Source: Candidatus Uhrbacteria bacterium GW2011_GWE2_46_68 (lineage in GTDB: Bacteria; Patescibacteriota; Patescibacteriia; UBA9934; GWF2-40-263). Taken from it: 64,000 nucleotides of DNA. The notes below the pieces were generated by a model. That model saw only the letters and a list, made by a program, of their open reading frames with translations, did no database searches and was not told the origin of the DNA. Below, in pieces: positions 4,477 through 64,000 of this stretch. Position numbers and translations under genes: made by a program. Within the stretch, counting starts at the first letter, position 1; every line of letters starts with the position of its first letter. The stretch covers positions 68,775-132,774 of the forward strand of contig LCMS01000004.1 in assembly GCA_001002765.1 (NCBI GenBank), written 5' to 3'.

Positions 4477-4532
4477 AAAGTGTGGTCATCATAACATGAC
4501 TTTTCGTTCATCTCAATGAAACAGATTAAATT

Positions 4533-4746
4533 GGTGTCAGGTCGGACTTTGGACTTTTTGTTTCTCAGTAAACAGAAAGAGAGAAAATTATTTCTAAAAA
4601 AAAGAAGGAAGATTCGCACTTTTTTAAATTCCTTTTTTGATTTCAAACATATCAAAATAACCCTTGTACACAAAATATATTTTTCATCAATTGTAGGACA
4701 ATATTTTTTGATTTTTTCAAAAAAGTCCAAAGTCCGACCTGACACC
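4533..4746. repeat. REP-related palindromic element: perfect 27-bp inverted termini (GGTGTCAGGTCGGACTTTGGACTTTTT) around an AT-rich ~160-bp core
   Basis: 4533-4559 is the exact reverse complement of 4720-4746. The terminus core GTCAGGTCG is shared with REPs at 13155, 32719 and 56388/57280. Confidence 0.7.
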
Positions 4747-4784
4747 ATAGCGTGTGACGATGGCCCTCGCAGACACCCACTGGT

Positions 4785-5948
4785 TTGAATATCTTTCCTC
4801 TTTTCCTGTATGCTGGAAGCATCTTGAGTTATTTTTTTATGAAATCACATTCTTCATTCGTCCTATTTGCTATTGTTTGCGGTATTGTTGCCGTGTTTGC
4901 CTATTTTTTGGTGTTCTGGTATCCGATGATTGCGGATCAGTTTGTTCAAGATAGGGAAGCGGAACAGACACCGGTCATAGAAACACAGGTGGAAGATATC
5001 GTGGAAGAAACAGCAGCAAGTGTTACTGATCTTTCCACATCTCGTTTTTTAAATCTCAAAGTCGTTTCTGTTTCCGAAGTGTCTGACGTGAGTGTTCGCA
5101 TGCGCACCGGATGGATCGAAAATCCCACACGCAGTGTGAGACAAAGCGTGCGCATTCACGAGCCCATGAATCTGGAATCCGAAACCTATCCAGTGGTGAT
5201 TTTTGTTCCTGGAGGTTGGAACAATGGTCGTTCGTTTGATCAGGGTCAGGATGGAGATTATTCCGACGCGGATTATTTGGCTGCCGAAGGTGTGATTGTG
5301 ATCACTTATTCTCCTTTGGGAACCGAGGAAGATGACCCCGAGCCTTTGGATTATGAAGGTTTTGCTGATCAAGATGGGCTCGCTGCCATCATCACAGCCG
5401 CTAAACAACTTACCAATGTTGATTTGGAACAAATCGGTGTGGCAAGTTTTTCTTATGGCATTACCGGTGCCGCGGGCGTTCTCTCACGCTATCCTGATTT
5501 GGGAGTGAAGTTTTTAGTGGATTGGGAAGGGCCATCGAGTCGAGAATATACGACCGTCGGATGCAAGGAGCATAAGCCCATGCCCGAGGGCGAGGAAGAT
5601 AATCGTCTCACATCTATTTCTTGTGAGGATGAATCTTTTTGGAGGGAACGTGAAGCCGCTTTGATGATTGCGACCGCCGACATAGAATATTATCTGCGCG
5701 TTCAATCCATCAAAGACCATGTGCAATCCACCTATGGGCACACGTTGGAAATGGTATCTGCCTCGGTGGGAAATATTCCTTGGGTGCGCGTCAATGACGG
5801 GGCAGTGAATGCAACCTATGAAACTGATGACGACATTCCTACGGTCTCTGAAAGTCCATCCTATTTTACCTCTTACGGTTTGTCTTTTATCTTAGAGTTG
5901 ATTGCCGCCCCTTCTACCGCAGCTGAATGGTTTGAGGAGGAGAGGTAA
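4785..5948 (+). CDS. membrane-anchored hypothetical protein, possible alpha/beta-hydrolase (esterase-like)
   Basis: N-terminal TM helix; VVIFVPGGWNNG and VASFSYG (GxSxG-like nucleophile elbow) suggest a hydrolase fold. Weak. Confidence 0.35.
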   Translation: MNIFPLFLYAGSILSYFFMKSHSSFVLFAIVCGIVAVFAYFLVFWYPMIADQFVQDREAEQTPVIETQVEDIVEETAASVTDLSTSRFLNLKVVSVSEVSDVSVRMRTGWIENPTRSVRQSVRIHEPMNLESETYPVVIFVPGGWNNGRSFDQGQDGDYSDADYLAAEGVIVITYSPLGTEEDDPEPLDYEGFADQDGLAAIITAAKQLTNVDLEQIGVASFSYGITGAAGVLSRYPDLGVKFLVDWEGPSSREYTTVGCKEHKPMPEGEEDNRLTSISCEDESFWREREAALMIATADIEYYLRVQSIKDHVQSTYGHTLEMVSASVGNIPWVRVNDGAVNATYETDDDIPTVSESPSYFTSYGLSFILELIAAPSTAAEWFEEER

Positions 5949-7290
5949 TATGTCTCTTTTTCGATCAAGTTTAGAATCTTCTCCGTCTGCTATCCCTGCG
6001 GAGGTAGGGGGCCAACGTACTTCAGCAAACCTAAGCGAGGCCATCATGGATTCGGTTTCAAGTGTCCGTGATTCTTTGCCAAAAGAACACCGCACACACT
6101 TTGAAACTCTGCGACAAGAGATCATTGATTTTACAAAAGCTCATGGGATTCCAAAAGAATCTCTTGGCAGTCCCGACCTCCTGCGCGAGGCTACAAAAAA
6201 ACTTTCTACCCAAGACCTTGAGCGACTTGCTCTCCTTCTTGAACGCTTTGAGCATCTACTTACTCACAAAGAGCCTCGTCGGGAAAAATCGGAAGCGCTT
6301 GAGTATGCCGATGAGTGGTATAACCTTTCCGAACGATACGCGTTTCAAATGAATTTTTTAAAAACACTAGGCATATACTTCCTGCATGAGAGAAACAAGA
6401 CATTCAATGAACGCATAGCAAATTTAAAGAACTTGCTTGGATCCTTATTGCCTTTTGGAAAGAAAAAACGCGAGGTGCCTTCGGCGTCTGAATCCATGGA
6501 AGATTTTTTCCTTTTGGATGTATTGGGAAGAAAGTATTCTGTTCCCACCTTGGAACAAATCGCCGCGCGTCTTTTTGAACGTCGCGAGGAACTTGAAACC
6601 AAACACGATCAAGGTTTTACTCATCTTCTTTTTGTTCCTTTTGCCGTTGAGACTGATCTTTTCATGCTTGCTTTTGGAAAATTTCTTCAAGATCGCGATA
6701 TGGAGAAAACGTTAGTGTCCCCGGTAGCTTATGCAAGTACCACTCGTTCGGTGATGTCACGCTTACGATATTTTCCGCAATCTTTTGACGCGAAAGGAGG
6801 TGATAGAGGTAAAGACAAGATGGACATTTTGAAGGAATTATCTGAACAGGCAAGCTCTTTTCTCGGGTGGAGGATCCTTCTTCTTCAAACTCCTCATGGT
6901 CAAAAAAGAGGATTCCGCGGTATCTCAAAGGATGGAGACCAAAAGAAATCATTCACCCGTCCGGAATTGGAAGTGGGGAAGACGCCTTCGGAATACCTTT
7001 CTCTCCAGAGAGACGAAACATCGCCTTATGATGGAGAATCGAGTATGGTTCTTGAAGATTGGATTTGTGCTTTTATGATTCATTATATGGAAACACGATC
7101 TTGTCTTGACGATATGGAATCCGGGGGAAATGCAGCTTCTTATTTGACAGGAGTATCACTTCCTGGGGATTTTACCGGATCTCAAATGGTGATAGCTGTA
7201 AAGTATGCACACCAAGATATCTTTTTTTATTGCCATTCTCCTCATCACAAAGATGAACAGATTGGTGCGCGTTTTGTCGTAGAGGTTTGA
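5949..7290 (+). CDS. paralog family protein of unknown function (copy 1 of 3 in window)
   Basis: Starts MSLFRSSLESS at ATG 5949, right after the upstream TAA and a GGAGG RBS. Homologous over its full length to 62365..63663 and 63675..>64000 (shared LPKEH..F..LRQEIIDF..HGIP..L..PDLLREA..L...DLERLA.LLE, LLPFGKKKR, DQGFT.LL.VPF, SPY.GE...EDWI.AFM.H, IGARF.V). Confidence 0.6.
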
Positions 7291-12419: not shown

Positions 12420-12494
12420 AAAGATCACCCTATGGATAGATGAACCGTGGAGTGTTAGGGAGAGCTCTTCTCATGTTCATTTGGAGGAAACGCT

Positions 12495-13152: not shown

Positions 13153-13205
13153 TAGGGTCAGGTCGTGCTTCGTGCTTTTTATAAAACTATCTGACCCTAT
13201 GACCC
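13153..13205. repeat. REP-like palindromic unit pair (GGGTCAGGTCGTGCTTCGTGC ... CTGACCCTATGACCCC)
   Basis: Intergenic. GGGTCAG/CTGACCC inverted arms. Core identical to the REPs flanking the rayT gene. Confidence 0.6.
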
Positions 13206-30541: not shown

Positions 30542-32713
30542 TTATCTTCGTAGTCGCAGCGAATTAAGCACAACGGAGACCGAAGAAAATGCCATGGCTG
30601 CGGAGGCGATGATCGGGGTCAAAAATCCAAGCGCTGCAAAGGGAATCGCCAACACATTATAGAGAAACGCCCAAAAAAGATTTTGTTTGATGATGCGATA
30701 AGTGCGTTGCGCCAGAACGATTGCTTGCGGAACTTTTAAAGGATCGCTTCCGATAATCACCATGTGTCCGGCTTCAAGCGCGATATCGGTTCCACTTCCC
30801 ATGGCGATCCCCAAATCCGCTTGTGTGAGCGCAGGCGCATCATTGATTCCATCTCCCACGAAGGCCACATGTTTTCCCTGTGCCTGCGCTTGCTTTACCA
30901 GATCAAGTTTTTGTTCGGGAAAAACTTGAGCGAAAATATGCGTCATACCCAATGGTTGTGCAATCGCTTCCGCGACTTCTTTTTTGTCGCCTGTCAACAT
31001 AGCTGTCTCGATATGACGCGTGTGTAATTCTTGCACCGTTTTTATCGCGGTGTCCCTGATCTGATCGCGAAGCGCAAAGAGACCGGCAATTTCTTGTTCT
31101 TTTGCAAAAATAAGAACGGTGCATCCTTCTTTGTGCCAGGCGCGTATGGTTTTTTCCAAAGCGGGAAGGATCGGGATTCCCATTTCTTCCATCCATGCGC
31201 GTTGCCCTAAGTGATAGAGATTATTTTGTATATTTCCCTGCACGCCCTTGGCTGTGACAGACAAGAAATGGTCGACAGGAAGCAGTGAAATTTTCTCTTT
31301 TTGTGCATGAGAGGCCAATGCCAAAGAAAGCGGATGAGAGGAGAAATGTGCAAGACTTGCAGCGTGCTGCAGAAGATCAGAGTCAGATCCCCGGAGGGTT
31401 TGCACGTGTACGATTGTGGGTTTTCCTTGGGTAAGTGTGCCCGTTTTATCAAAGAACACTTTTGAAATGTTTCGCGCGCGTTCAAGCGCCTCGCCGCTTT
31501 TGATAAGTATTCCTTGTCGCGCTCCATGTCCGGTTCCAACCAAGATGGCTGTGGGGGTGGCAAGACCCAAGGCACAAGGACAAGCGATAACCAAGACGGC
31601 AATGGCAGGAATCAAAGATGTGGTCACATCTTTTGTGATAAAAAACCAAACAATAAATGTCGAAAACGCAAGACCTAAAACCACGGGGACAAAGACAGCA
31701 GACACACGATCTGCGAGTGCTTGAATGGGCGCGCGTTTCATTTGCGCGTCTTGCATGAGTTTTACAATGCGCGCCATCAGGGTTTCTCCTGCGGGTTTTG
31801 TCACTTCTAAGGTCAGACTTCCGTCTTGATTGATTGTGGATGCAAAAACAGTATCCCCGATCTGTTTTGTTACGGGAATACTTTCGCCAGTGAGAGCAGA
31901 TTCATCCACGTTTGAGACTCCGGATTGCACCACAGCATCGGAAGGAATTTTCTCTCCGGGTTTGACCAACACACGATCTCCCACACGAATTTGTTCGGGT
32001 GGAATATCTCGTGTGCTACCATCCTGTTCAAGTAGATGTGCTTGCTTGGCTCCCAAAGAAAGGAGACCTTGCAAGGCTTCGCCAGCCTTTCCTTTGCTGC
32101 GGGCCTCCAGGGCTTTTCCCAGTAAGATGAAAAAAGTGATGATGGCCGCGGTTTCAAAATAGCGATGTGTCTCCACAAAAACCGCCCACCAACTTGAGAC
32201 AAGAGAAACAAGGGTGCCCAGCGAAATCAGAGCATCCATGCCGGCCGTGAATCGTCGCGCTTGTTGGAAAGCGACTTTATGAAAGATAAATCCCGTTCCA
32301 AGAACCGCAACAGAAGCGAGTATTCCTTCAAACCAAGGAAGGATCATTGAGGGGAGAGGAAGAAACCCCATAGCAGAAAGAAAAACGGGGAGAGCGAGTA
32401 TTCCCGAGAGTAAAGCGCGGCGATCGGCTTGTCTGCGCTCGCGTGCAAACGGGACGGCTCCATGATCATGTCCTTCCATGCCCGTATGTTTTTCTTGCGA
32501 AGCGGAATGAGAAGGAACTTGATATCCTTCTTGCTCGACTATTTTGTGTAATGCATGAATGTCTACGTTATCGTCTGCGTTGACTTGAGCTTGTTGCAAG
32601 GCATAATTTACACGTGCTTCTTTTATACCAGGATGTTTGGAGAGTTGTTGTTGAATGCGCACAGCACAAGAAGCGCAGTGCATACCTTCAATGGGAAAGT
32701 TGTAAGTTTTCAT
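30542..32713 (-). CDS. copA: copper-translocating P-type ATPase
   Basis: N-terminal HMA (GMHCASCAVRI), CPC motif (ACPCALGLATP), DKTGTLT, GDGINDAPAL. Confidence 0.9.
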   Translation of the reverse strand: MKTYNFPIEGMHCASCAVRIQQQLSKHPGIKEARVNYALQQAQVNADDNVDIHALHKIVEQEGYQVPSHSASQEKHTGMEGHDHGAVPFARERRQADRRALLSGILALPVFLSAMGFLPLPSMILPWFEGILASVAVLGTGFIFHKVAFQQARRFTAGMDALISLGTLVSLVSSWWAVFVETHRYFETAAIITFFILLGKALEARSKGKAGEALQGLLSLGAKQAHLLEQDGSTRDIPPEQIRVGDRVLVKPGEKIPSDAVVQSGVSNVDESALTGESIPVTKQIGDTVFASTINQDGSLTLEVTKPAGETLMARIVKLMQDAQMKRAPIQALADRVSAVFVPVVLGLAFSTFIVWFFITKDVTTSLIPAIAVLVIACPCALGLATPTAILVGTGHGARQGILIKSGEALERARNISKVFFDKTGTLTQGKPTIVHVQTLRGSDSDLLQHAASLAHFSSHPLSLALASHAQKEKISLLPVDHFLSVTAKGVQGNIQNNLYHLGQRAWMEEMGIPILPALEKTIRAWHKEGCTVLIFAKEQEIAGLFALRDQIRDTAIKTVQELHTRHIETAMLTGDKKEVAEAIAQPLGMTHIFAQVFPEQKLDLVKQAQAQGKHVAFVGDGINDAPALTQADLGIAMGSGTDIALEAGHMVIIGSDPLKVPQAIVLAQRTYRIIKQNLFWAFLYNVLAIPFAALGFLTPIIASAAMAFSSVSVVLNSLRLRR

Positions 32714-32718
32714 AAAAA

Positions 32719-32740
32719 GGGGTCAGGTCGTGAATCGTAG
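32719..32740 (+). repeat. REP element GGGGTCAGGTCGTGAATCGTAG (identical to rayT left flank)
   Basis: Exact 22-nt match to 56388-56409, in the 37-nt gap between copA and the HMA protein gene. Confidence 0.8.
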
Positions 32741-32750
32741 CGTTTATGTT

Positions 32751-34031
32751 TTAATCTTCGACGATAAGCGTCCCGCGCACCATGCCCATAGAGCAACTAA
32801 AGGTAAATGTTCCGGTACGATCCGGAGTAAAGGTGATAGTGTTTACTCCTTTTTGCAGGGGCATAAAGATATCGAAGGCAGAGAGGATAAGAGAATCTGC
32901 ACACCCTACGCGATCCGCGCGATCAATTTCCCATACCACGGGAATATTTTTTTTCACGGTGAATACATCGGGGTCATAGCTGCCATACGGAGTCACTTTC
33001 ATACGAATGGTTTGTGTCTCTTCCGTTTGTATCGCTGTTGTCGTTTCTCCCCATGTGGGCCAAGCGCTTAGGAGCAATAAACCGTTTTGCGCAGTTTGAA
33101 TGCTCAATGCCAGCGCGATTGCTCCGGCTCCTAACGTTGCCCACACGCGCACACTTCCCTTGATAGAGGTAAAAAAGATCCCAATTCCAAGGAGTGCCGG
33201 AAGCGTTCCCAAGACAAAAAGCCCAAGAGCAAGAGCTGAGAGCCACGGATTCCCAAGTGATAACGCATAGAGCTGCATGGCTTGAGTGAATCCGCAAGGA
33301 AGGAAAAAAGTGAGCGCTCCGGCCATCCATGCTCCTTTTGGATGCCCCAAAGGAAAGAGGCGTTTGATAAACATAGGGAAGGATGCAGGAGTTTTGAGGT
33401 GAAAAGACGGAGGCAACCACTGTACCAAGCGCAAACCGAGAAAGAACAAAAGAATGGCGATTCCAATGAGAAGAAAGCCGTTGATCGTTGGAGAGAGATG
33501 CACGGTAGATCCCAACGTGCCAATCAAAAATCCAAAAAAGACAAAGCTTGTCAGACGGCCTGCATGAAATTTAAGATGGAATTTCCACGGATGATTGAAC
33601 TTTGAGGCGGATCCCATGGCACTCGAGAGACTGGCAAGAATCCCTGCAAGCAAGGCGGAACAGGTGGAGAAAGAAGCGAGGATTCCTATACCAAGAATGC
33701 TTAATAACGGAAGAGTCCGTGATGGATCAAGAGAAGGAGAGGAAGTAAACGGAAGGAGAAACCAAAGAACGATCAAAGCCAGAACAAAAAGAATTCGTTT
33801 TGGCGATACGCGAAATTTTACGGGCGCGTTTGAGAGACGATACCCAAGAGGGGACAAGAGAGATTCAATCTCCTTTGATGTGTACACACGATCTGCTGTG
33901 AGATGAATTTGCTGAGTGTGAAGATTGACCGTAATTTCTTGAACGCTTGAAAGTGCACGCAAGGTTTGCGCGATGGTAATCTCGCAGCTGGAACAATGCA
34001 TGCCTTGGACATGAAAGATTTGTTTGGACAT
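32751..34031 (-). CDS. heavy-metal-associated (HMA) domain membrane protein with C-terminal cupredoxin-like domain
   Basis: N-terminal GMHCSSCEITI HMA motif, ~8 TM helices, C-terminal beta-rich VTPYGSYDPDVFTVKKNIPVVWEI...FSCSMGM cupredoxin-like module. Confidence 0.55.
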   Translation of the reverse strand: MSKQIFHVQGMHCSSCEITIAQTLRALSSVQEITVNLHTQQIHLTADRVYTSKEIESLLSPLGYRLSNAPVKFRVSPKRILFVLALIVLWFLLPFTSSPSLDPSRTLPLLSILGIGILASFSTCSALLAGILASLSSAMGSASKFNHPWKFHLKFHAGRLTSFVFFGFLIGTLGSTVHLSPTINGFLLIGIAILLFFLGLRLVQWLPPSFHLKTPASFPMFIKRLFPLGHPKGAWMAGALTFFLPCGFTQAMQLYALSLGNPWLSALALGLFVLGTLPALLGIGIFFTSIKGSVRVWATLGAGAIALALSIQTAQNGLLLLSAWPTWGETTTAIQTEETQTIRMKVTPYGSYDPDVFTVKKNIPVVWEIDRADRVGCADSLILSAFDIFMPLQKGVNTITFTPDRTGTFTFSCSMGMVRGTLIVED

Positions 34032-34493
34032 AAAAATGAATAGAAAAAAATAAAGATGCGCCCTTTTTTCTATTCACGTTTTTGAATCGCTAAATGACGA
34101 GAGAGAGTTGAAAGTGGCGGGGGGACGGCATCGGTAAAAAGAGGATCGAGCAAAGGAAGAAACGCATGGTGGAATACGACAGAAAATATCGAAGTTCTTT
34201 GGAAGAGGTGGAGGAGGACATCCGCTTGAGGAGGATTTTGATAGTCTTGAGAAAGACAATGAAAGAGACAATTCGTCGCCGGAGAAGGAGGTGGAGGGGT
34301 GTTTGATGTTTGGTGGCAAGAAGAAATGGGAGGAGGGGTTTGTGTATCTGCCGGGGCAGAGGCGGGAATCACTAAAAACCATCCTGCAAGATGCAGAGTA
34401 AAAGCCAAACAAAGAATCCAAGAGGTGTGGCGCATAAACAGAATTATATCGCAGAGAACGGTGAATGAAAAACGGAGCGTAAGTTTTGCTCTA

Positions 34494-34672
34494 TAGTCCT
34501 CACATCATGAAACAGGATTTATCCATCCAGAGGGATGGCGGTCTGCTTGTCTTTCGCGTAGAAAAATTCTCAATGTATCTACGGATACATCTGCGGTTTT
34601 TCTACGCTCCAAGACGGCGCATCCCATCCATTCCTCTGGCGTCTAAAGTCCCGTTTCATAATGTGAGGACTA
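34494..34672. repeat. 179-nt rod-like palindromic element (20-bp terminal inverted repeat, nested 11-bp inverted repeat, multiple complementary internal segments)
   Basis: TAGTCCTCACATCATGAAAC (34494-34513) vs GTTTCATAATGTGAGGACTA (34653-34672), 19/20 complementary. GCGTAGAAAAA (34556-34566) vs TTTTTCTACGC (34597-34607). GGGATGGCGGTCTGCTTG on the left pairs with CAAGACGGCGCATCCC on the right. Confidence 0.6.
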
Positions 34673-34709
34673 TGGAATTATTCCTCCCAGTTCGCTATGC
34701 TGGCAGCGT

Positions 34710-35906
34710 ATGAATACACAAACGTATCCAACGATCAGGCTGCGCGCAGAGCGCGAACGCAGCACCTTGGCCAGGCACCCATGGATTTTTTCACAAGCCG
34801 TCCATTCTTTGGATACCGAAGTGAGACACGGCGATCTTGTACAAGTGGAATCCTGGGAAGGAGAAGTGATTGGAGTGGGAACATTTTCCGAATCCTCTTC
34901 GATTGTCGTGAGGATTTTTTCTTTTACTCCCTGTACGATCGATGAAACGTGGATGGAGGAAAAGATTTTGGAAGCGGATGCGCGGCGCAAAAAAGCAGGG
35001 GTGACGGGTGAACACACCGACGGATATCGTGTGGTATTTGGAGAGGCCGACGATCTTCCGGGAATCGTTATTGACCGGTATCGCACGGTGTGTGTGTTGC
35101 AACTTTCAACTGCCGGAGCGGATCGTTTGCGCGAGATGATCGTGCAAGCACTTGAGAAAATATTTCATCCCGCAGCGATCGTAGAGCGCAGTGATATGCC
35201 TTCGCGTAAAGAGGAACGACTGGAACCCGTTGTTTCCGTTCTCCACGGGACACTTCCCAAGAAAATTCTTTTTTCTGAAGAGGGAATTGAATATCTGGCC
35301 GATCCCTTGGAAGGACAAAAAACAGGATTTTTTTTAGATCAACGACCTTTACGCACCTGGCTTCTTCAAAACGCTCATGGTCGTGTGCTTAATCTTTTCA
35401 GTTATTCCGGCGCGTTAGGCATTGCCGCGATCAAAGGTGGAGCAGCGTCTGTGTTGAACGTTGATGTCAGTGCTTCGGCTTTGGAACTCTGTAAAAAACA
35501 GGCGAAGCTCCACAAAATTGATCCGGACGTTTTTCAAACTGAAGAAGCGGACGTGTTCCAATACCTCGGAAAAACCACAGACGAGCTTTTTGATATGGTC
35601 GTTTTGGATCCGCCGGCGCTCATCAAATCACGTAAAGATATGGAGGAAGGACGTAAGGCCTATCACTTTCTCAATCGCGCGGCTATGCGCTTGGTCAAAC
35701 CCGGAGGCATCTTTCTTTCCTCGAGTTGTTCCTATTATTTTTCTTTTGAAGATATGTTTACAACTCTTCGTCGCGCTTCGCTTCAAAATAAACGCACGTT
35801 TCATATTTTTTCTTCCTTTCCTCAACCTGCAGATCATCCCGCTTCACTGTATTTTCCCGAGTCCGCTTATCTCAAAACGATTATGGGAGAGATGGGGGAG
35901 AGTTGA
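34710..35906 (+). CDS. rlmI: 23S rRNA m5C methyltransferase RlmI-like (PUA + class I SAM MTase)
   Basis: N-terminal PUA-like region; VLNLFSYSGALGIAAIKGG SAM-binding; DPPA motif (VLDPPALIKS). Confidence 0.7.
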   Translation: MNTQTYPTIRLRAERERSTLARHPWIFSQAVHSLDTEVRHGDLVQVESWEGEVIGVGTFSESSSIVVRIFSFTPCTIDETWMEEKILEADARRKKAGVTGEHTDGYRVVFGEADDLPGIVIDRYRTVCVLQLSTAGADRLREMIVQALEKIFHPAAIVERSDMPSRKEERLEPVVSVLHGTLPKKILFSEEGIEYLADPLEGQKTGFFLDQRPLRTWLLQNAHGRVLNLFSYSGALGIAAIKGGAASVLNVDVSASALELCKKQAKLHKIDPDVFQTEEADVFQYLGKTTDELFDMVVLDPPALIKSRKDMEEGRKAYHFLNRAAMRLVKPGGIFLSSSCSYYFSFEDMFTTLRRASLQNKRTFHIFSSFPQPADHPASLYFPESAYLKTIMGEMGES

Positions 35907-45739: not shown

Positions 45740-46318
45740 GGCACACGCTTATAGGTATTATAGAATTCTATGGAATCCAACAAGCGATCCTATGCCCGAC
45801 GCGCGGAATATCTCAAAAAAGCAGTTGTACGCAGAAGGCGTGAAGTTCGAGAGAAGGCGATTGCTCACTTAGGTGGTCAATGTCAGATATGTGGTTATAA
45901 ACGTTGTGAGCAGGCTCTCGATTTTCATCACCGCAACCATAAGGAAAAAACATTCGGCATTTCCCAAAAAGGATATACAAGATCTTGGGAAAGAGTAAAA
46001 GAAGAACTAAAAGGTTGTGTCTTTCTTTGTGCAAATTGTCATCGAGAAATTCACGCAGGGTATACGCAGCTTCTGACAGAGATGTCAGAATGATCATAGG
46101 GTGAACTTCTGGAAGCCTACATCCGAAAGGATATGGTAATCAGAAGCCAAGCCCCACGAAGTTTAAGACAAGTGGGGAAGGTTCAGAGACTATCCGTTAT
46201 GACCCTCAAAAGAGAGGGGAGGAGTACCTCGCCAAAAGGCGGGGGAAGCGCCCTACATCCTCGCAATATGCAGGATGATGATATAGTCCACCCCTTTGGG
46301 AAACCAAAGGATGATGTG
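45740..46318 (+). ncRNA. group I self-splicing intron in tRNA-Asn anticodon loop (between nt 36 and 37)
   Basis: Catalytic-core element R (GTTCAGAGACTATCC, 46181-46195) and element S (GATATAGTCC, 46280-46289) form P7. 5' splice after U, terminal omega-G at 46318. Contains an HNH ORF. Confidence 0.7.
45770..46093 (+). CDS. HNH homing endonuclease (intron-encoded)
   Basis: CQICGYKRCEQALDFHHRNHKEK...CVFLCANCHREIHAG carries the HNH/zinc-finger motif. Located inside the intron 5' region. Confidence 0.75.
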   Translation: MESNKRSYARRAEYLKKAVVRRRREVREKAIAHLGGQCQICGYKRCEQALDFHHRNHKEKTFGISQKGYTRSWERVKEELKGCVFLCANCHREIHAGYTQLLTEMSE

Positions 46319-46382
46319 TAACCAGTAGGTCGTGGGTTCAAGTCCCACCCCCGGAGCCACAAAGATCCCTAGCAATTTGCTA

Positions 46383-56388: not shown

Positions 56389-57301
56389 GGGGTCAGGTCG
56401 TGAATCGTAGTGTTCAACATTTATTTTTCTATGACAAGACCACTTCGCATTGAATATCCTGGAGCATTTTATCACATCATCTCCCGCGGAAACGCGCATC
56501 AAGATATTTATCTTGACAATAAAGATCGACAAAATTTTTTAATGAATCTTCAGCATTGCCTCCGGTCGCACTCTCTCCGATGTCATGCTTATTGTTTGAT
56601 GAACAATCACTATCATTTACTTTTAGAAACGCCTAGAGGGAATTTATCTCAAGCCATGCGTGACATCAACGGTCTCTACACTCAAAAATTTAACAAGAGA
56701 CATAAACGTATTGGCCATGTTCTTCAAGGGCGTTACAAAGCTTTCCTTGTTGAAAAGGACGCTTATCTTTTACAAATTGCTCGTTATATTGTCCTCAATC
56801 CACTAAAAGCCGGTATAGTCAATCATCCAAAAAAATGGAGGTGGAGCAGCTATTCCATTACAGCTGGTCTTAGAGAGTCTCCAACTTGGTTTGACTCAAG
56901 TGTTATTCTTGCTCTTTTTACATCAAATAAAAAAAGAGCACAAAAGTACTATCGTCGATTTGTATATGAAGGTGAAAATGAACCTTTTCTTTACGAGAAA
57001 GGAAAGGGGGGTGTGATTTTGGGTAGCCAAGAATTTGCAGATCAGATTCGGAGAGAGTTTAAAAATAAGAAAAGTTCAAAAGAAGTTGTCATTTCTGAAA
57101 GAGTGATCAGTCGTCCAAGTTTAGAAGATTTATTTTTTCAGATAGATAATCAAGAAGAACGGAACAAGATGATAAAATTAGCTAGAATAAAAGCCTTTTA
57201 TTCCGTTACAGAAATCGCGAATCATTTAGGTTTACACAGAACAACCGTCAGTAAAATTTTTAACGATAAAACATGAATGCTACGATTCACGACCTGACCC
57301 C
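56388..57301 (+). mobile_element. REPtron: IS200-like Y1 (RayT-like) transposase gene flanked by inverted 22-bp REPs
   Basis: Left GGGGTCAGGTCGTGAATCGTAG (56388-56409) and right CTACGATTCACGACCTGACCCC (57280-57301) are perfect reverse complements. The same REP occurs at 32719 and relatives at 13155, 4533/4720 and 46451/47991. Confidence 0.8.
56431..57276 (+). CDS. rayT: REP-associated tyrosine transposase (IS200/IS605-like Y1 HUH transposase)
   Basis: YHIISRGN...HAYCLMNNHYHLLLETP (HuH) and RYKAFL (catalytic Tyr region) match the Y1_Tnp (PF01797) pattern. ATG 56431 chosen over the GTG at 56410. Confidence 0.8.
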   Translation: MTRPLRIEYPGAFYHIISRGNAHQDIYLDNKDRQNFLMNLQHCLRSHSLRCHAYCLMNNHYHLLLETPRGNLSQAMRDINGLYTQKFNKRHKRIGHVLQGRYKAFLVEKDAYLLQIARYIVLNPLKAGIVNHPKKWRWSSYSITAGLRESPTWFDSSVILALFTSNKKRAQKYYRRFVYEGENEPFLYEKGKGGVILGSQEFADQIRREFKNKKSSKEVVISERVISRPSLEDLFFQIDNQEERNKMIKLARIKAFYSVTEIANHLGLHRTTVSKIFNDKT

Positions 57302-62233: not shown

Positions 62234-62364
62234 AAGAACGCCCCGTATGGGGCTTCTTTTGTGTATAAACAGGTCGCTTCCAATAGGAGGGTGCGCTATG
62301 ATGGTGTTGATCTATGAAACGTTTGTCTTTAGAGTCCGCTCCCTCCTTTCCCATTGAAATGCGC

Positions 62365-63663
62365 ATGGCTTCTTTTTCACGATCCTCTCTTCCCGAGCCT
62401 TATCGTGATCAATTTGATTTTCTTCGTCAGGAGATCATTGATTTTGCAGCATCTCACGGGATTCCAAGAGAGGCGCTTGCCAAACCCGATCTTCTCCGCG
62501 AGGCTGCAAACAAACTCCCCACCCCAGACCTCGAGCGACTAGCTGTTCTTCTTGAGCGTTTTAAACACCTCATCGTTCATCGTGAACCCTACAGAGAAAC
62601 ACAGGCTGAAATTTTGGAATACGCGGAAACATTTTATAACTTGAGAGAACAATACACACTCCAATGTGATTTGTTCAAACGTCTGAAGCTTTTACAGGTA
62701 GGGTATTTGTCAGAACCTGTAGACACGGAGCGCACACAAGGATTGTCCGCTCTTTTTCGCTCCCTGTTGCCTTTTGGGAAAAAGAAAAGGGTGCGCAAAG
62801 AGCCTCCAAAAAAAGGCAAAGAATTTTTCTTTGTCTACGGAATAGATGGAAAACAATATACGTTTCCCACCTTGGAAGAAGTGGCGGAGCGTCTTTATCG
62901 TCAACAAGAACGTTTGCATATCAAGCGCGATCAAGGTTTTACCAAACTCCTCCTTGTTCCTTTTGGCATGAGACTTGAAGATTTATTCTCTATTTATTTC
63001 AGAAAATTTTTAACCGGGTATCAAGAGGCTCATCCGAATTTCGGTCTCAAAGGAGATGGACTTATGAGCGGATATGACGATTTTGTCCATGTGGACAGAG
63101 GAAGTAATCCCCGTCTTTTTTATTACCCAAGGTTTTTTCGAGAAACGGATCATCAAGGAAAAACAAAACCTCAGATTTTAAGAGAACGAGTAGCACAAGG
63201 TGTCTCTTGTCCCGGATGGAATATCAGTCTTTTTCAACCGCTTGAACCTGATGACCTTTACTCCAAAGGGTTTGCTTCCATTAGCAGGCATGATTATACC
63301 CAAGGCAAAGAGTGCCTCCGTCCTTGTTTAAGCGTCGGTCGTCCTCCACACGAATATCTTTCCTTGCTCGAAGATGCTAAAGCAAATCCTGATTCTCCTT
63401 ATCATGGCGAAACGGGGATGACTCCCGAAGATTGGATAACCGCTTTTATGGTGCACCTTGAAGAAACAGGAAGACCACTTGATGATTTTCTAGGTCCTGG
63501 GGAATCTGAAGCTTATCTTTTGGGTTCCTTTTTTCCGGCGAATTATTGTTTTATGCCTTATGCGCGTTGGGATAACCATTTCGGCAAACCGGGAATGTCG
63601 AAGGGGACTATGCCCGCTGAATCATATGAAAATATAGGCGCTCGTTTTTTAGTGCAGATTTGA
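62365..63663 (+). CDS. paralog family protein of unknown function (copy 2)
   Basis: Start MASFSRSS (internal ATG). Homologous throughout to 5949..7290. Confidence 0.6.
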   Translation: MASFSRSSLPEPYRDQFDFLRQEIIDFAASHGIPREALAKPDLLREAANKLPTPDLERLAVLLERFKHLIVHREPYRETQAEILEYAETFYNLREQYTLQCDLFKRLKLLQVGYLSEPVDTERTQGLSALFRSLLPFGKKKRVRKEPPKKGKEFFFVYGIDGKQYTFPTLEEVAERLYRQQERLHIKRDQGFTKLLLVPFGMRLEDLFSIYFRKFLTGYQEAHPNFGLKGDGLMSGYDDFVHVDRGSNPRLFYYPRFFRETDHQGKTKPQILRERVAQGVSCPGWNISLFQPLEPDDLYSKGFASISRHDYTQGKECLRPCLSVGRPPHEYLSLLEDAKANPDSPYHGETGMTPEDWITAFMVHLEETGRPLDDFLGPGESEAYLLGSFFPANYCFMPYARWDNHFGKPGMSKGTMPAESYENIGARFLVQI

Positions 63664-63674
63664 TGTTTGATTTT

Positions 63675-64000
63675 ATGTCTTCTTTTTCTCGCTCATCTCC
63701 CGAATCCGTCCCATCTATTACTTTTCACGAAGCCACCCCCACGGAGGTGGGGGTCCAACGTACTTCGGAAATCTTAAATGAAGCCATCCTCTCTTCAGTT
63801 TCAAGTGTCCGTGATTCTTTGCCCAAAGAACATCATGGGCACTTTGACACTCTCCGACAAGAGATTATTGATTTTACAAAAGCTCATGGGATTTCCAAAG
63901 ATGCACTTTCCAATCCCAGCCTCCTTCGTGAGGTGACCGACAAACTCTCCATCCCAGACCTCGAACGACTCGCTCTCCTTCTCGAGCACTTTGAGTATTT
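63675..64000 (+). CDS. paralog family protein of unknown function (copy 3, partial at window end)
   Basis: MSSFSRSSPESVPS...VSSVRDSLPKEHHGHFDTLRQEIIDFTKAHGI. The 5' region is ~85% nt-identical to 5949-6200. Confidence 0.55.
   Translation, partial: MSSFSRSSPESVPSITFHEATPTEVGVQRTSEILNEAILSSVSSVRDSLPKEHHGHFDTLRQEIIDFTKAHGISKDALSNPSLLREVTDKLSIPDLERLALLLEHFEY

Follow-up and report, generated by a model that had tools for sequence, protein, structure and literature searches.

Bacterial MITEs, which are non-autonomous DNA transposons, are less than 200 bp long, end in inverted repeats with 5'-TA-3' termini, form long stem-loops and duplicate their target (PMC2229807). Elements of the IS630/Tc1-mariner type have a nearly exclusive preference for TA as insertion site, which they duplicate (PMC2170065). 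The Correia elements of Neisseria (CREE/NEMIS), accepted as MITEs without a known partner, are non-coding, roughly 100–160 bp long, intergenic and polymorphic between strains, with long terminal inverted repeats, a TA target, TA at both ends, transcripts that form long hairpins and a cognate transposase that is not known. RUP of Streptococcus pneumoniae is a small MITE inserting at TA, for which an IS630-family transposase acting in trans (IS630-Spn1) was inferred from the similarity of the ends and the TA targets. The Stowaway elements of plants combine TA duplication and hairpin potential with mobilization by mariner-like transposases. They are also classed as MITEs (PMC1925063).

ERIC, bcr1 and Stowaway are imperfect palindromes of 100–250 bp; structure-preserving compensatory changes have been reported for bcr1, which has 5-bp direct repeats, and one reading frame is open through ERIC and RPE elements. 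REPINs, which consist of two short REP palindromes and a spacer, occur abundantly and beside their RAYT, and no TA duplication has been reported for them. 6S RNA (RF00013) is a mostly double-stranded rod of about 180 nt with a central bubble that resembles an open promoter. To our knowledge, the genomes of CPR/Patescibacteria are small and poor in mobile DNA, and no description of a MITE from these bacteria was found in a full-text literature search.

Here we analyzed a 64,000-nt stretch of the genome of Candidatus Uhrbacteria bacterium GW2011_GWE2_46_68 (hereafter, the window), in which a 179-nt palindromic element lies upstream of rlmI. The element is dispersed over unrelated loci, precisely present or absent in related genomes, flanked by TA, accompanied by truncated remnants and conserved as a hairpin by compensatory changes, and it is very probably a mobile non-autonomous element. 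The region is likely a non-autonomous DNA transposon (MITE) that inserts into and duplicates TA and belongs to a family found so far only in Uhrbacteria-like (CPR/Patescibacteria) genomes. It resembles the Correia elements in the features given above and in its ends (TATAG(T/C)GG... in Correia and TA+TAGTCC... here), but there is no sequence similarity beyond TATAG, the Correia repeats of 24–26 bp surround a core whereas the 179-nt rod here is near-complete, a handful of copies stands against hundreds, and the host is a CPR bacterium; IHF-site and promoter-forming properties are features of the Correia elements. It shares the small size and TA insertion of RUP, but a matching IS630 element occurs in the same genomes as RUP and none was found for the Uhrbacteria element. 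The palindromic form of ERIC, bcr1 and Stowaway, the compensatory changes of bcr1 and the open frame of ERIC and RPE are all paralleled here, whereas the sequences and hosts of ERIC, bcr1 and Stowaway are unrelated and the direct repeats of bcr1 differ. With REPINs the element shares a long hairpin with compensatory changes, a feature that some MITEs also have and that is not diagnostic, as well as single-end remnants and an implied single-stranded form, and it is unlike REPINs in the architecture, RAYT adjacency, abundance and target behavior described above.

Sequence and fold of the element

The palindrome TAGTCC...GGACTA at 34494–34672 was delimited as a full-length MITE copy by folds, nine-copy alignments and empty-site boundaries. 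Its left terminal inverted repeat TAGTCCTCACATCATGAAAC (34494–34513, plus strand) and right terminal inverted repeat GTTTCATAATGTGAGGACTA (34653–34672, minus strand; reverse complement TAGTCCTCACATTATGAAAC) differ by one mismatch and are conserved at the ends of all copies. The 20-nt repeat was found nowhere else in the window, where 0.01 chance matches were expected. A repeat finder lengthened the arms to 49 nt with 78% complementarity and placed apical arms at 34556–34579 and 34584–34607. The apical part of the rod (34556–34607) consists of an 11-bp perfect stem GCGTAGAAAAA/TTTTTCTACGC (34556–34566 and 34597–34607) around a GTATC-TACG-GATAC hairpin (34575–34588). The sequence features that the initial annotation had described for the 179-nt palindrome, including the 20-bp terminal repeat with a single mismatch, the 11-bp apical stem and the GTATC/GATAC hairpin, were thus all recovered when the sequence was re-read.

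The long imperfect hairpin proposed there was borne out on both strands by rod folds far below those of shuffled sequences. The predicted RNA fold of the plus strand was −92.2 kcal/mol (shuffles −40.9 ± 3.9, z −13.3) and that of the minus strand −102.5 kcal/mol (z −14.6), with none of 200 shuffles being as good in either case, and the folds with DNA parameters were −46.2 and −51.1 kcal/mol for the two strands (z −9.3 and −11.4). No intrinsic-terminator-like site overlapped the element and no U-run followed the hairpin on either strand, on which grounds the reading as an intrinsic terminator was dropped. A short-read Logan contig (SRR6487826_87, L003:1-98) terminates exactly at the center of the palindrome, at about window position 34575, probably as an assembly break due to the palindrome.

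The ORF across the element (34486–34713) had looked spurious from the outset, and the database searches agree. Of the three forward frames of the element, two stop within 17 nt and one stays open from end to end. Searches with this 75-aa frame against 5.8 billion proteins and 1.84 billion representatives returned other element copies and two weak matches from the representatives search (P0125 and P0126), which are unlike element copies and one of which, when read, was a repetitive protein. The coding reading was dropped because the database relatives of the frame are ORFs called on other element copies and because, of six copies that were translated, two have the frame interrupted by stop codons. 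The element accounts in this way for a spurious 68–75-aa 'gene' in the annotation, as it does for the contig break at the palindrome center.

Copies and hosts of the element family

Copies were sought by scanning 185,579 species genomes and the JGI metagenomes with the 20-mer end, position 13 being free and all other positions exact. The scan yielded MITE copies, remnants and about three probable chance matches; L007, L008 and L015, in which similarity was limited to 20–22 nt, were treated as the latter. From metagenome contigs, it recovered full copies, a half copy and short remnants. Four further loci were reached through ORFs in protein databases that had been called on element copies. In total, nine full-length copies with mutually unrelated flanks (the window, L006, L009, L011, L013, L023, L030, L029 and L034) were obtained, which were 70–92% identical to one another, together with four truncated remnants that each retain one terminus (L005, L009:472-505, L012:889-957 and L014). 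No match to the element was found in plasmid and phage databases or in viral contigs. The sequence family itself is new.

All of the copies were hosted by Candidatus Uhrbacteria-like genomes and groundwater or sediment metagenomes. An identical element was present on a contig of GCA_003506835.1, in which the ORF called across the element is labelled Candidatus Uhrbacteria by NCBI, and on groundwater metagenome contigs with an identically encoded RlmI-like protein. Copy number was low. The source genome has one copy within the 64-kb window, and the maximum seen per genome was one full copy and one remnant, as in the Uhrbacteria MAG JACQSF01, whose remnant is a solo end; the most in any single metagenome was three full copies and one remnant.

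The insertions were all located between genes or overlapped only the last codons of a gene. The first three bases of the element form the stop codon of an upstream Hsp20-like gene at L009:2998-3000, and its first 17 nt form the 3' end and stop codon of an RmlD-like epimerase gene at L023:6264-6280. Non-orthologous copies were about 92% identical in genomes that were about 83–84% identical over their aligned DNA, and this excess over the genome background points to selection or recent spread.

Filled and empty insertion sites

Two independent comparisons of filled and empty sites defined the inserted DNA. The L011 copy (L011:2902-3081) sits between a hibernation-factor-like gene and the next gene, and the DNA on either side of it is orthologous to the 11.0–13.1 kb region of the window. 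The filled site reads AGA-TA-[TAGTCC...GGACTA]-TA-AACGAACC and the empty site at window 12434–12446 reads GGA-TA-GATGAACC, with the single target TA at 12437–12438. The second comparison concerns the window copy itself, which reads GCTC-TA-[element]-TG-GAATTATTCC, whereas the closest relative, L016, reads GCAC-TA-GAATTATTCC. The element is missing upstream of rlmI in L016, L019, L020 and L021, and RlmI proteins of element-free relatives are 91%, 86% and 75% identical to that of the window. With reference to the empty site of L016, the left copy of the duplicated target is the TA at 34492–34493 and the right copy at 34673–34674 reads TG; relatives have TA or TG at this position, and either an A>G change after insertion or a site polymorphism would account for it. 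It follows from the two comparisons that insertion at a TA added the 179-nt unit and a single further dinucleotide. A third empty site, sought for the L023 copy, was rejected since the window matches were paralogous genes.

TA flanked both sides in seven of the nine full-length copies. Judged from sequence, TA on both sides against a single TA in the empty sites is most simply a duplication, although TA dinucleotides owned by the element would leave the same pattern. As in bacterial MITEs, the 179-nt unit is small, below a limit of about 300 bp, and non-coding, with terminal inverted repeats at the ends of nine of nine copies, a target-site duplication, non-homologous loci and insertion polymorphism between relatives. 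The initial annotation had wavered between a 6S-like and a MITE-like element and had taken multi-copy occurrence with target-site duplications to point to the latter; both were found, and the nine unrelated loci, the TA flanks and the precise empty sites in related genomes speak for the MITE-like reading. The family is also a clean marker of recent insertion or loss among Uhrbacteria strains.

Conservation of the hairpin and strand bias

In the alignment of nine copies, 97.0% of the cells were paired over 74 predicted pairs, 25 of which showed compensatory double changes. None of 500 shuffles reached any of the five measures of pairing and covariation, and pairing fell to about 40% when the partners were slid by 1–3 columns. 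The apical stem and the GTATC/GATAC hairpin were likewise kept by compensatory changes (GTCAAG/CTTGAC in L006 and GGAGC/GCTCC in L034). The most divergent copy, L034, which is 70–75% identical to the others, nevertheless had the best fold (−116 kcal/mol). Since asymmetric internal loops recurred across the aligned copies, the arms are not mere copies of one another. With 25 covarying pairs in nine copies, the family provides a compact example from nature in which a 179-nt hairpin is selected for. Compensatory evolution alone has already been reported for bcr1 and REPINs and does not make the element a new kind.

The non-Watson–Crick cells were biased toward one strand. They were G.U on the complement of the window plus strand at 18 pair positions versus 4 (P = 0.004), a count that is somewhat inflated by prediction of the structure on the favored strand; limited to mostly Watson–Crick pairs, the bias was 14 versus 4 (P = 0.03). 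The same complement strand folded better in nine of nine copies, and these per-copy energies are independent of the choice of strand for the structure. Among loci with co-directional flanks, L006 and L034 have the better-folding strand in sense orientation and L011 and L023 have it in antisense orientation, and because of this 2:2 split a function in host mRNA does not explain the wobble bias and was rejected as its cause. The bias may stem from a stage as single-stranded DNA, from a transcript that belongs to the element itself or from biased repair in an extruded hairpin. Taken with the covariation of 25 of the 74 pairs, the wobble bias hints at a single-stranded stage.

The copper operon–rlmI region

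The gene downstream of the element (34710–35906) encodes PUA_3 and Methyltrans_SAM domains and its homologs are named 23S rRNA (cytosine1962-C5)-methyltransferase, in support of the RlmI-like assignment made from the sequence at first sight. On the other side, the minus strand encodes divergent copper-resistance genes, namely a P-type ATPase, an HMA/DsbD/cupredoxin protein and a 121-aa ORF. In relatives with an empty site, the distance from the start of the 121/124-aa ORF to that of rlmI is about 95 nt, and this gap must hold both promoters. The insertion divides it at 58 nt from the start of the 121-aa ORF and 37 nt from the rlmI ATG, a point at which regulation between the copper-resistance operon and rlmI may have changed. 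Two sigma-70-like sites were identified on the minus strand by consensus match only, one at 34706–34677 that would read into the element and one at 34471–34443 just beyond it; 1.3 such promoter-like sites were expected in the region from shuffles.

These observations bear on a reading that adds to, rather than excludes, the MITE reading, namely that this copy or the whole family, a MITE by origin, has been recruited as a regulatory hairpin at the RNA level. Possible roles include a 5' leader that stabilizes or blocks mRNA, an RNase III target and an insulator between the promoters of the copper operon and rlmI. The hairpin is very stable on both strands, this copy lies within the divergent promoter region of about 95 nt with the putative site at 34706–34677 (minus strand) pointing into it, the copies are more conserved than the aligned DNA of their genomes, and Correia and other bacterial MITEs behave in this way. 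On the other hand, orientation to the flanking genes is inconstant (L006 and L034 against L011 and L023), the element is not overlapped by any terminator-like site, the two promoter-like sites are within what shuffles yield (1.3 expected), and close relatives do without the element at the rlmI locus. We see recruitment as a minor possibility alongside the MITE reading.

The copper-resistance block itself (30542–34435) lies between an ASCH-domain gene and rlmI both here and in more distant relatives. It is missing from L016, whose RlmI is 91% identical, where the gap between the ASCH gene and rlmI is 81 nt (L016:4518-4600); the block is a strain-level insertion or deletion adjoining the MITE site. 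Its 121-aa ORF is proline-rich and had no Pfam or NCBIfam match. Where the 121-aa ORF ends and the 426-aa copper-protein gene begins, both points are spanned by a 21-nt inverted repeat at 34029–34084 (CATAAAAATGAATAGAAAAAA / TTTTTTCTATTCACGTTTTTG, 86% complementary, with a 14-nt spacer).

Mobilization of the element

Because TA-specific insertion that duplicates the TA is the hallmark of IS630/Tc1-mariner transposition, we infer a mover of this type and lean, with some caution, toward an IS630/Tc1-mariner-like mobilization. A TA-specific DDE transposase supplied in trans would move the element by cut-and-paste: it would bind both inverted ends, excise the element and attach the 3' ends of the element to a TA at staggered positions. 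By these steps, the window copy would have landed in the divergent copper operon/rlmI promoter region of about 95 nt, 37 nt before the rlmI start codon. Scans of genomes, metagenomes and viral contigs with the exact-end 20-mer, which could miss a diverged partner, found no pair of matching ends around a gene and hence no autonomous element. Among genes called in the flanking DNA that was retrieved by protein look-up, which is part of all the DNA fetched and, unlike the loci from the DNA scans, carries precomputed annotations, none had a Pfam transposase domain listed. The family shows transposase activity reaching Uhrbacteria genomes, though none is visible nearby. Cut-and-paste by a DDE enzyme requires no pairing of the interior, yet 25 of the 74 pairs covary here, and two other modes of mobilization were weighed.

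In a REPIN-like mode, the hairpin would be moved as single-stranded DNA by an HUH/tyrosine transposase (RAYT or IS200/IS605-like) and would come to lie beside TA without a true duplication. This was raised because the window encodes a REP-associated tyrosine transposase-like protein (56410–57276). Rod-wide compensatory changes, seen here in 25 of 74 pairs and in none of 500 shuffles, are likewise reported for REPINs (PMC3116915). The G.U bias of 18 versus 4 (P = 0.004) and the better fold of one strand in all nine copies suggest a specific single strand, and the solo-end remnants resemble REP singlets. Against it, the element arms are not made of two short REP hairpins, copies are far fewer than in REPIN populations and the TA on both sides compared with one in the empty sites is more simply a duplication. 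Moreover, blastn and nhmmer gave no similarity of the element to the repeats that bracket the transposase gene (GGGGTCAGGTCGTGAATCGTAG...) or to other repeats of the window related to them. IS200/IS605-type targets are 4–5 nt long, whereas only TA is conserved at the target here. We regard the REPIN-like mode as unlikely. Integron attC and ends of the IS200/IS605 type were also considered and rejected, since their core motifs do not match and conservation outside the element is limited to TA.

The other mode is a hairpin replicator whose active form would be one specific single strand, either single-stranded DNA or an RNA copy. It was considered because of the rod-wide compensation down to 70% identity, the 18:4 wobble bias, for which transcription of the neighbors gives no explanation, and the scans that returned no DDE partner. 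If true, it would be an undescribed mechanism of TA-flanked, hairpin-dependent mobilization in genome-reduced CPR bacteria; we hold it to be improbable.

Compared with the MITE reading, a gene for a structured non-coding RNA in single copy, whether a 6S-like RNA or some other rod-shaped sRNA, is hardly credible, and the insertion polymorphism largely refutes it. The element does resemble 6S RNA in being about 180 nt long and in folding into a rod interrupted by internal loops, and the covariation is strong, but RF00013 gave no match at the gathering score in the window, no Rfam family matched at E ≤ 10 in 34000–35000, the large central bubble is absent, the orthologous site is empty in four relatives, so that the locus is not a conserved one, eight other copies lie at unrelated loci beside unrelated genes in both orientations with TA flanks, and no promoter-like site is placed to transcribe exactly the 179-nt unit and no terminator-like site overlaps it.

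Other features of the window

The RAYT-like gene named above encodes a 288-aa Y1_Tnp / REP-associated tyrosine transposase-like protein (56410–57276; NCBIfam NF047646, 84.4 bits against a cutoff of 80) and is bracketed by 36-nt inverted repeats starting GGGGTCAGGTCG (region 56389–57301). A 216-nt unit at 4532–4747 has perfect 28-nt inverted ends with the core of these repeats. The 12-mer GG(G/T)GTCAGGTCG occurs six times in the window, against 0.33 expected, at sites including 13154–13165 and 32719–32730. Among the other fetched loci, it was found only in L001 and L002, which are from the same species and cover the 32719 site. The gene and its repeats look like a REP/RAYT-type system in a CPR genome. 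A link of the palindromic element to this gene was rejected: the repeats (GGGGTCAGGTCG...) are another sequence family, unrelated to the element ends (TAGTCCTCACAT...), so that no REP sequence is shared, and the 12-mer is absent from the element loci of relatives.

An Rfam group I intron match was detected at 45999–46310 on the plus strand (87.6 bits). The ORF at 45770–46093, which overlaps its 5' part, had no Pfam or NCBIfam match and is presumably HNH-like, as judged by eye. The intron match is directly followed by a sequence resembling the 3' half of a tRNA (GGTCGTGGGTTCAAGTCCCACCCCCGGAGCCA; region 45770–46360); no 5' acceptor half for it was found in the window and ARAGORN called no tRNA at 45770–46360. 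Finally, at least three paralogous proteins of about 450 aa without a Pfam domain are encoded in the window (5902–7290, 62314–63663 and 63660–63998), and in a relative this family is represented by tandem genes (L023, 7682–10189).
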